This document shows positions 24,297 to 24,794 of a stretch of DNA of 64,000 bases, in pieces. The DNA lies in the IMG/VR virus record IMGVR_UViG_2721755710_000007, positions 1 to 64,000 of that record; one strand, written 5' to 3'. The notes below the pieces were generated by a model. That model did no database searches, was not told where the DNA came from, and saw nothing but the letters and a program-made list of their open reading frames with translations. The stretch's first letter is position 1. Every line of letters begins with the position of its first letter. A program made the translations under genes and the position numbers. Origin of the DNA: a virus. Taxonomy: Duplodnaviria > Heunggongvirae > Uroviricota > Caudoviricetes.

Positions 24297-24794
24297 ACAA
24301 ACACAGCACTGTACCCCCCCTCATAACTGAAAAGCGCCGCCGCCCCCGCCCGAAGGGCGGGAACAACATCGCTTTTAATTATGAATGTTGTAAGTACATT
24401 GTCATCGCTGTCAGTCTTCTGGCTGGAAGTCCTCAGTACACGCTCGTAAGCGGCCCTCACGGCCCGCTAACGCGGAGATACGCCCCGACTTCGGGTAAAC
24501 CCTCGTCGGGACCACTCCGACCGCGCATAAAGGCTCTGTCATGGCTGAAAACGGGTATGGCTTAGCAGGGCCGGGGGTGGGTAAGGTGAAATCTATCAGT
24601 CAGTACCGGCTTACGCCGGGCTTCGGCGGTTTTACTCCGGTATCATATGAAACAACAGAGTGCCGCCTTCCATGCCGCTGGCGCGGCATCAGGACAACTG
24701 AAGAGTGACGGCGCACATTAACATCAAACAGACTTGTTAAGCAGTCTTTCAGGGTGTAATCTGAAGACCTGTTAAATAGTCTCAGAGGTGTGTT

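Follow-up and report, generated by a model that had tools for sequence, protein, structure and literature searches.

A probable orphaned 'repA4' (ter/G-site) fragment of an IncI-complex/IncFII replicon in a P1-like phage-plasmid

The G+C-rich, hairpin-dense stretch that precedes a toxin-antitoxin pair in the window (the whole stretch of 64,000 nucleotides analysed here) is very probably an orphaned, non-coding piece of a plasmid basic replicon, namely the oriR-distal 'repA4' segment of an IncI-complex/IncFII RepA-oriR replicon with its ter and G-site sequences. Since neither an origin nor an initiator is present, we regard it as an ordinary element and not as a new RNA. The element as such is already long known; here it is found in an orphan state. 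The features discussed below are listed in Table 1.

Table 1. Positions in the window of the replicon-derived fragment, its predicted elements and its neighbours
Feature	Position	Strand	Remarks
3′ third of P1 darB, the real part of the '643-aa gene'	22365–24181	−	5′-truncated; pseudogene remnant
darB-interior scrap, 31 bp	24180–24210		P1 14407–14437; marks the deletion/insertion junction
Orphan non-coding basic-replicon fragment ('repA4 region'), probable	24211–24692	+	homology to IncI-gamma/K and IncFII
terRL equivalent, degenerate	24256–24269	−	aligns with L002 1265–1278, GTGTGTTGTAACTA on the minus strand
Long imperfect hairpin, terminator-like shape	24330–24376		outer stem AAAAGCG/CGCTTTT; inner GC hairpin 24345–24361
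Inverted repeat CCCGCCCGAAGGGCGGG	24345–24361
terRR, Tus-binding replication terminator by homology	24383–24396	+	one mismatch to consensus
Hairpin module A ('block 2')	24437–24527	−	most conserved part of the element; 14-replicon alignment
Hairpin module B, three hairpins	24595–24692	−	candidate G site
Inverted repeat CCGGCTTACGCCGGGCTTCGGCGG	24606–24629
Module B, stem-loop I	24606–24619		alternative 24614–24628
Module B, stem II	24625–24629/24663–24667
Module B, stem-loop III	24672–24689
Inverted repeat ATGCCGCTGGCGCGGCAT	24672–24689
Putative stbDE promoter/operators	24730–24782	+	direct-repeat family D1; sequence inspection
18-bp palindromic repeat AGACTTGTTAAGCAGTCT	24730–24747
Candidate −35, TTGTTA	24734–24739	+
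Candidate −10, TGTAAT	24755–24760	+
18-bp palindromic repeat AGACCTGTTAAATAGTCT	24765–24782
Shine-Dalgarno sequence, AGAGG	24784–24788	+
stbD/phd-type antitoxin	24795–25046	+	PhdYeFM_antitox, E 3.2e-5; at 24.0 bits it falls short of the Pfam cutoff (29.8 bits)
stbE/relE-parE-type toxin	25043–25330	+	ParE_toxin, E 3.6e-15, above cutoff

As a sequence, the feature is real and statistically unusual. An earlier note had drawn attention to its unusually high G+C content and to three inverted repeats, and both observations were borne out. All three repeats are present, and the G+C content amounts to 54.5% over positions 24297–24790 and to 58.0% over the core at 24314–24692, for a whole-window value of 46.3%. 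Indeed, this 379-bp core is the G+C maximum of the window, no other stretch of the same length reaching 58.0%. The ~100 bp that follow it (24693–24794) are AT-richer (42% G+C) and represent a separate feature. When positions 24300–24700 were folded as single-stranded DNA, we obtained −79.1 kcal/mol for the minus strand (z −2.86) and −76.0 kcal/mol for the plus strand (z −2.99), and none of 100 shuffles folded as well on either strand.

In the comparison with related plasmids that had been proposed, a megablast search of 24297–24794 against PLSDB matched at least 5000 records, with identities of ~92–93.5% and a location downstream of repA/oriR. The matches listed were mainly to conjugative plasmids of Escherichia, Klebsiella, Salmonella and Shigella, and the usual span among them was query 18–393, which corresponds to window 24314–24689, at ~92–93% identity. 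In the IncFII, IncI and IncK plasmids among them, the DNA matched by this core lies roughly 470 bp past repA. In representative gene maps, the block always lies ~370–480 bp past the stop codon of the initiator, which is either an IncFII RepA or an IncI/K RepA of the RepZ type. The genes beyond the block are tir/pemIK in IncFII plasmids and R100, yacAB in pCT and IS91 in a Shigella virulence plasmid; an IncFIC plasmid and pS1400_89, which is of the IncI-gamma/K type, have phd/relE genes of the stbDE kind there. The homology common to all replicon types ends at 24689–24692, the 3′ end of stem-loop III, and beyond this point the sequence varies with the downstream cassette. Since the element in relatives comes after repA-oriR in every case, irrespective of the cassette beyond it, it belongs to the origin and not to the mRNA of the toxin-antitoxin pair.

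The identity to the segment downstream of oriR was 92–93.5% over 376–482 bp in IncFII, IncK, IncI-gamma and R100 (92.3% with pCT; 92.6% with IncFII plasmids for 24314–24689), and nhmmer E-values ranged from 1e-33 to 1e-146 across 15 loci. Of the intact relatives examined, pS1400_89 comes closest: its positions 1854–2970, from 368 bp past repA to the end of the relE-type toxin gene, match window 24211–25329 with 93.5% identity, stbDE included. With the IncI-complex plasmids (IncI-gamma/K, pS1400_89, pCT; ColIb-P9-type ssi signal) the window shares this homology, the same antitoxin accession and the lack of an intact terRL. In these plasmids, however, the segment is placed directly after ori, whereas in the window it follows the 31-bp scrap of P1 darB. 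Compared with the 'repA4 region' of R1 and R100 (NR1), window 24314–24689 is ~92–93% identical to the R100-type sequence (L025 45736–46219; L002), and the features follow each other in the same order and orientation, namely GC hairpin, terRR, module A and module B. Unlike R1 and R100, the window has no repA, CIS and oriR on the left, its terRL equivalent is degenerate, its terRR carries a C-to-G change in the core, and the cassette downstream is stbDE instead of tir/pemIK. The published order in pEntH10407 is repA1, oriR, repA4, stbD, stbE (PMC2762410), and in pEC958 the repA4 region holds ter sites, repA4 being among the elements needed for maintenance (PMC4398462).

In the window, the element is not directly preceded by repA-CIS-oriR, its left neighbour being P1 darB. 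A tblastn search with five RepA proteins found no RepA homologue in the 64-kb window, and a blastn search with the repA-to-element segments of IncFII and IncI-gamma plasmids found no oriR there. Because RepA and oriR are absent and darB adjoins, the window copy is a homologous fragment and not a part of a working replicon. Window 21650–24181 is 98.2% identical to P1 9754–12285 (lxc and ulx, plus darB at its 3′ end), and the remaining left part of the window is P1-like as well (pacA/pacB, c1, cre and ref). The 31-bp scrap at the junction matches darB in 12 P1-like phage records at 100%, and replicon-derived DNA begins at 24211. Residues 39–643 of the '643-aa gene', which had been taken as the left flank of the stretch, match DarB 1651–2255 with 98% identity, and the first 38 codons are chance read-through into the darB scrap and the replicon fragment. 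As the fragment abuts the darB deletion junction, the '643-aa gene' is a 5′-truncated darB. Furthermore, since its darB homology ends at 24181, the non-coding stretch is longer than had been proposed; the description as non-coding stands, while the length given for it and the gene named on its left side do not.

A remnant of a deleted mobile element, another of the earlier suggestions, came nearest of the three: the stretch is a remnant, its source being a plasmid basic replicon downstream of oriR and not a transposon. A function as recombination site found no support, yet the edges of the element at 24181/24211 and ~24690 are junctions with DNA that differs from plasmid to plasmid. A Xer/cer-type site (TGTTAAAT in 24770–24777) was considered and rejected, since on inspection nothing at the required distance would pass as a XerC arm; the two palindromes, which are better suited to toxin-antitoxin operators, weaken this reading as well. 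At least 21 PLSDB records have preserved the full junction. The three orphan copies examined (the window, L001 and L007) are 99–100% identical overall; an IS3 is inserted at 24238–24248 in L001, and a ~4-kb cydAB segment exactly at 24180/24181 in L007.

The stbDE cassette and the replicon remnant were acquired together, on one fragment. The antitoxin accession WP_001139206.1 is common to L001, L007 and the annotation of pS1400_89, where it follows ori, and the sequence at 24693–24794 is found together with stbDE in relatives of the IncI-gamma/K and IncFII/FIC types. Judged by its sequence, the region at 24730–24782 is a putative autoregulated promoter/operator of this Phd/RelE-type pair, with two 18-bp palindromic repeats that bracket the candidate −35 and −10 hexamers. 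The consensus promoter scan made no call at 24730–24782, and the 15-nt spacer of the candidate promoter is short.

The replicon-linked copies carry terRL and terRR at the expected positions and in opposite orientations. In the window, terRR (GAATGTTGTAAGTA) shows one mismatch with GNRNGTTGTAAYKA, a C-to-G change at 24394 that corresponds to Ter position 17. This site is written like TerB on the plus strand, the orientation that arrests forks moving in the + direction, that is from the oriR side. Both its position and its orientation fit the role of terRR. A perfect terRR (GRATGTTGTAACTA, plus orientation) is present in 13 of the 14 loci that have the element after repA, L019 having the variant GAATGATGTAACTA, and the G at 24394 is common to all three orphan copies. 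For terRL, a perfect inverted Ter lies ~130–170 bp upstream of terRR in 10 of 12 IncFII-type loci examined, and positions 24256–24269 gave no match to the Ter consensus in the window and in the IncI-gamma/K copies. In R1, terRL as well as terRR is found between oriR and the leading-strand start, where terRL halts the counter-clockwise fork and terRR the clockwise fork after a full circuit (PMC10331603). The E. coli Tus-Ter system (TerA-J) has the same 14-bp core motif GNRNGTTGTAAYKA, which relatives match perfectly, and its polar orientation logic agrees with the R1 model (PMC10331603). It differs in that the window has a G for the conserved C at position 17, and this change lies inside the conserved core because the latter comprises positions 6 and 8–18 (PMC8347550). 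We infer that the core C-to-G change weakens the binding of Tus at the terRR of the window; the change may have arisen by drift, or else because a fork barrier in the wrong place was selected against.

Compensatory base changes were observed in three hairpin regions across 14 replicons. For this alignment, IncFII-family replicons with a RepA ~78% identical to the reference were added from Klebsiella, Lelliottia, Pantoea, Erwinia and Intestinirhabdus, and their post-ori regions were aligned with the window. In the first region, at 24330–24376, the inner stem occurs as GCCC/GGGC, GGCCC/GGGCC, GGGCC/GGCCC and CCCCGGCC/GGCCGGGG among the 14 replicons. This hairpin was not called as an intrinsic terminator by the scan, because its T-run lies 10 nt from the inner stem. 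The second region is module A, the ends of which are near-invariant even where RepA identity is only 24–25%. Its stems covary as GCGGCC/GGCCGC versus GCGCCC/GGGCGC, as CCCGAC/GTCGGG versus CACAGC/GCTGTG and CAAC/GTTG, and as GGGT/ACCC versus GGC/GCC. RNAalifold with DNA parameters gave −16.6 for the minus strand of module A versus −12.3 for the plus strand, a preference that is weak evidence because the extra G.T pairs are invariant. In module B, stem II occurs as GGCGG/CCGCC or GGCGCC/GGCGCC, and stem III as ATGCCGC/GCGGCAT, ATGCCC/GGGCAT or ATGCGC/GCGCAT, with a changed stem in L013 and L019. Around module B, the window and the IncI-gamma copy show 100% identity over 24578–24720. Diverged paralogues were found elsewhere for both modules: F carries one of module A's left half (L024 40689–40749, E 1e-4), and R100 carries one of module B next to oriT (L025 5546–5640, E 1.6e-5), in the transferred-strand orientation. 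These paralogues suggest that modules A and B are each a self-contained unit.

In R1 and R100, the hairpins downstream of oriR are single-stranded-DNA priming signals and not RNA structures. Masai & Arai 1989, Tanaka et al. 1994 and Jiang et al. 1993 are said to have described a G site downstream of oriR in R1/R100, at which DnaG primase alone reportedly initiates the leading strand in a phage G4-like fashion; according to the first and the last of these studies, the leading strand reportedly starts ~380–400 bp beyond oriR. Because replication heads away from repA, the leading-strand template corresponds to the minus strand of the window. In 5′-to-3′ order, module B consists on this strand of stem-loop III, stem II and stem-loop I (CCGGCGTAAGCCGG), followed by TA-CTG, where the CTG is the plus-strand CAG at 24601–24603; this would place the first base of a primer at 24602, and the primer would run rightwards as AGTACCGGCTTACGCC. 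For the IncFII locus L002, a DnaA box at 1035 implies that the 188-bp oriR ends at 1222, and base 1620, the equivalent of the proposed start, is located 398 bp past oriR.

The minus strand of module B thus displays the layout of the complementary-strand origin of phage G4, with hairpins 5′ of a CTG. In G4 oric, stem-loop I is followed by CCCTA-CTG and the primer starts AGTAGGGACGG. The principle proposed for both is that hairpins on the template strand precede a CTG and that the primer starts opposite the T; also alike are the TACTG 2–3 nt past stem-loop I, the AGTA start of the primer and the presence of three stem-loops within ~90–100 nt. The match is, however, architectural only. A BLAST comparison of G4 oric with the element revealed no significant similarity, the best match being the 9-mer CGGAGATAC (E 0.29), which we took to be a chance match. 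Moreover, the CTG of module B is absent from three of nine aligned copies (L006, L015 and L018), and a second candidate at 24434–24436, within a minus-strand TACTG (plus CAGTA, 24434–24438) directly 3′ of module A, lacks its CTG in about half of the 14 replicons. As neither CTG is present in all homologues, the start site is not conserved in the simplest way.

Module A is better conserved than module B, and its combination of conserved ends with a dispensable middle is what we take to be the pattern of the R100 G site. In addition, module A contains AAGCGG on the plus strand (24448–24453), which is found in 12 of the 14 replicons and in the F paralogue, the exceptions being L011 (AAGCAG) and L015 (TAGGCGG); this is presumably the motif of PriA-type (phiX174-type) primosome assembly sites. 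From position, architecture and the R1/R100 literature, we infer that a G site lies inside the element. Module B is, with moderate confidence, the best candidate for it, and module A may either belong to that site or represent a second signal for single-strand initiation.

In an intact replicon, RepA would open oriR, and terRL (in IncFII types) and terRR would sit just past it. Beyond these terminators, the G+C-rich hairpins on the leading-strand template would keep their fold in single-stranded DNA and enable DnaG primase to lay a primer, and this G site would give unidirectional leading-strand synthesis. After one round, a fork that re-enters through repA and oriR would be halted by Tus at terRR, preventing rolling-circle over-replication. 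In the window, only the distal segment is left, together with the stbDE cassette that is seen after it in some IncI-gamma/K and IncFII plasmids, and the two were joined into the darB deletion of a P1-like phage-plasmid. Because RepA and oriR are missing, the fragment most likely does nothing for replication in the window, and its hairpins would be at most one more incidental primase site.

Conceivably, the fragment could have retained a function in P1-like phage-plasmids, either as a primase entry site for the lagging/complementary strand or as a weakened fork pause site, but we consider this very unlikely, and we give the same small chance to the Ter mutation being an adaptation that removes a harmful fork barrier. 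In agreement with these ideas, all three orphan copies have the Ter core mutation as opposed to perfect sites in 13 of the 14 repA-linked loci (L019 being changed differently), module B is unchanged relative to its IncI-gamma counterpart over 24578–24720, the junction has been kept in 21 or more plasmid records, and both modules have paralogues outside replicons in F and R100. However, the orphan copies with their 99–100% identity represent one recent lineage, and the shared mutation and intact hairpins are for this reason expected from common descent alone. Furthermore, the fragment adjoins a selectable toxin-antitoxin cassette with which it may be hitch-hiking, and insertions at 24180 and 24238 have been tolerated. 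The full proposal, in which the captured fragment is kept for its own function, with hairpins that prime the host replicon and a Tus-Ter barrier that was deliberately disabled by the C-to-G change, is no more probable. If it were true, the priming modules would be portable units, with diverged copies beside oriT in R100 and, in F, outside an IncFII-type replicon.

A structured RNA, whether as a 5′ leader that regulates the stbDE operon in cis or as a small RNA in its own right, deserves little credence. Such a reading would accommodate the dense, stable hairpins with compensatory changes, the location upstream of stbD and a plus-strand hairpin with T-run at 24614–24628 that resembles an intrinsic terminator. 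This T-run, however, is not kept in the diverged copies, and the plausible stbDE promoter at 24734–24760 lies downstream of the element. The covariance-model check proposed in the earlier note, a cmscan of 23500–25500 (both strands, E up to 10), gave no Rfam match other than four chance-level hits to snoRNA/miRNA families, all outside the element. In addition, the strand preferred in folding is the minus strand, antisense to stbDE, and the element ends at ~24690, to be followed by unrelated cassettes (tir/pemIK, yacAB, IS91), so that it tracks the origin. With no Rfam family and with an element that in relatives follows repA-oriR irrespective of the genes downstream, the structured RNA or 5′ leader that had been suggested is unsupported.

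A small protein, be it RepA4 or the annotated 55-aa and 63-aa 'hypothetical proteins', is extremely unlikely. Some records do carry annotated ORFs (WP_000841011.1, WP_000829592.1), repA4 is annotated in pEntH10407, and the window itself has a 55-aa ORF at 24541–24708. This ORF, however, is without Pfam match, and the repA4 ORFs of pEntH10407 were entered as truncated (PMC2762410). The earlier observation that the stretch holds no convincing ORF was confirmed, all overlapping ORFs being 30–78 aa. Moreover, the spacing between two invariant anchors is off by a non-multiple of three in 8 of 13 homologues, which means that the reading frame is not conserved, and conservation tracks the hairpin stems rather than codons.

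Leading-region ssi promoters are known (PMC10104558), and hairpin-dense plasmid DNA with a diverged module B paralogue beside oriT in R100, in transferred-strand orientation, would suit a single-stranded-DNA promoter of this Frpo/ssi-like type for early expression after conjugative entry, but this is scarcely believable for an element that is always downstream of repA-oriR and never in the leading regions of the maps examined, that has no −35/−10 pair within its stems by inspection, in which the scan picked up a single promoter-like site, a linear duplex match at 24378–24405, and that resides here in a non-conjugative P1-like element.

The very probable identification as an orphaned 'repA4' segment opens no new biological question, and its value lies mainly in annotation. 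The block is present in at least 5000 plasmid records, where it is mostly unannotated or labelled 'hypothetical protein' or 'repA4', and an orphan copy such as the present one can be misread as a new RNA or as a sign that an IncF/IncI replicon is present. Its recognition also corrects the call of the neighbouring gene: in place of a 643-aa gene there is a truncated darB. Lastly, it dates the island as a composite, in which plasmid-derived DNA lies inside a P1-like phage-plasmid.

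The '643-aa gene' to the left of the orphan ter/G-site fragment is darB of a P1-like phage-plasmid without its 5′ part. Residues 39-643 of its product are 98% identical to DarB residues 1651-2255, while the GTG start at 24296 and codons 1-38 represent a chance read-through into foreign DNA. The genes lxc and ulx follow downstream, and this arrangement is the same as that downstream of darB in P1. The area where darB and the replicon fragment meet is an insertion hot spot among related records: about 4 kb with cydAB-type cytochrome bd genes was inserted there in a Salmonella plasmid (L007), and an IS3-family element in an E. 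coli plasmid (L001).

Features of the truncated darB region and insertion sites at the junction
Feature	Window position	Strand	Remark
'643-aa gene'	22365-24296	minus	5′-truncated darB, P1-like phage-plasmid
lxc	21646-21894		downstream of truncated darB
ulx	21891-22331		downstream of truncated darB
Insertion sites	24180/24181 and 24238-24248		L007 901-4969; L001 10619-11941

The island around the fragment also carries, within the phage-plasmid backbone, an EAL-domain gene and an autotransporter gene (19963-20652 and 26190-29687). The autotransporter, 1165 aa in length and AT-rich, has pertactin, autochaperone and VirG-insertion domains.

At 24526-24533, the window lineage has CATAAAGG, where ACAG is conserved in 12 of the 13 other replicons and ACTG is found in L013. 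Read on the minus strand, this ACAG gives a CTG at the right-hand margin of hairpin module A. With the mutation in the Tus-binding terminator terRR, this makes two changes at conserved positions in the orphan copy. In Escherichia sp. MOD1-EC7003 (L011), an insert of ~150 bp at about 4445-4600 separates terRR from module A, the remainder of the IncFII ori-distal region being typical. This insert contains a long palindrome (TGTCAACCACTGAATCGG...CGATTCAGAAGTTGACA) and resembles a small insertion element able to form a hairpin.

IncFII repA genes, 78-100% identical to the query RepA, were also encountered in assemblies that bear the names Streptomyces, Lachnospiraceae, Nanosynbacter, Nocardiopsis and Catenulispora (L009, L012, L014, L020, L021), which almost certainly reflects contamination of these assemblies by enterobacterial plasmid DNA.

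Both hairpin modules have paralogues elsewhere. That of the module A left half is located in the F plasmid (L024 40689-40749, TACAAGCTCGTAAGCGGCCCTGACGGCC; E 1e-4), not within any IncFII-type replicon, and may be one of F's single-strand initiation signals. A diverged paralogue of module B, the best G-site candidate, was detected in R100 (L025 5546-5640; nhmmer E 1.6e-5) with the sequence GGGGCTTCGGCC ... TCATATGA ... GGCCTTCCATGCCGCTGTCGCGGCAT. It is flanked by a DUF932 gene and by the SLT/gene X next to oriT, and is oriented such that the proposed template strand is the transferred strand. After conjugation, this paralogue may serve to prime synthesis of the complementary strand.
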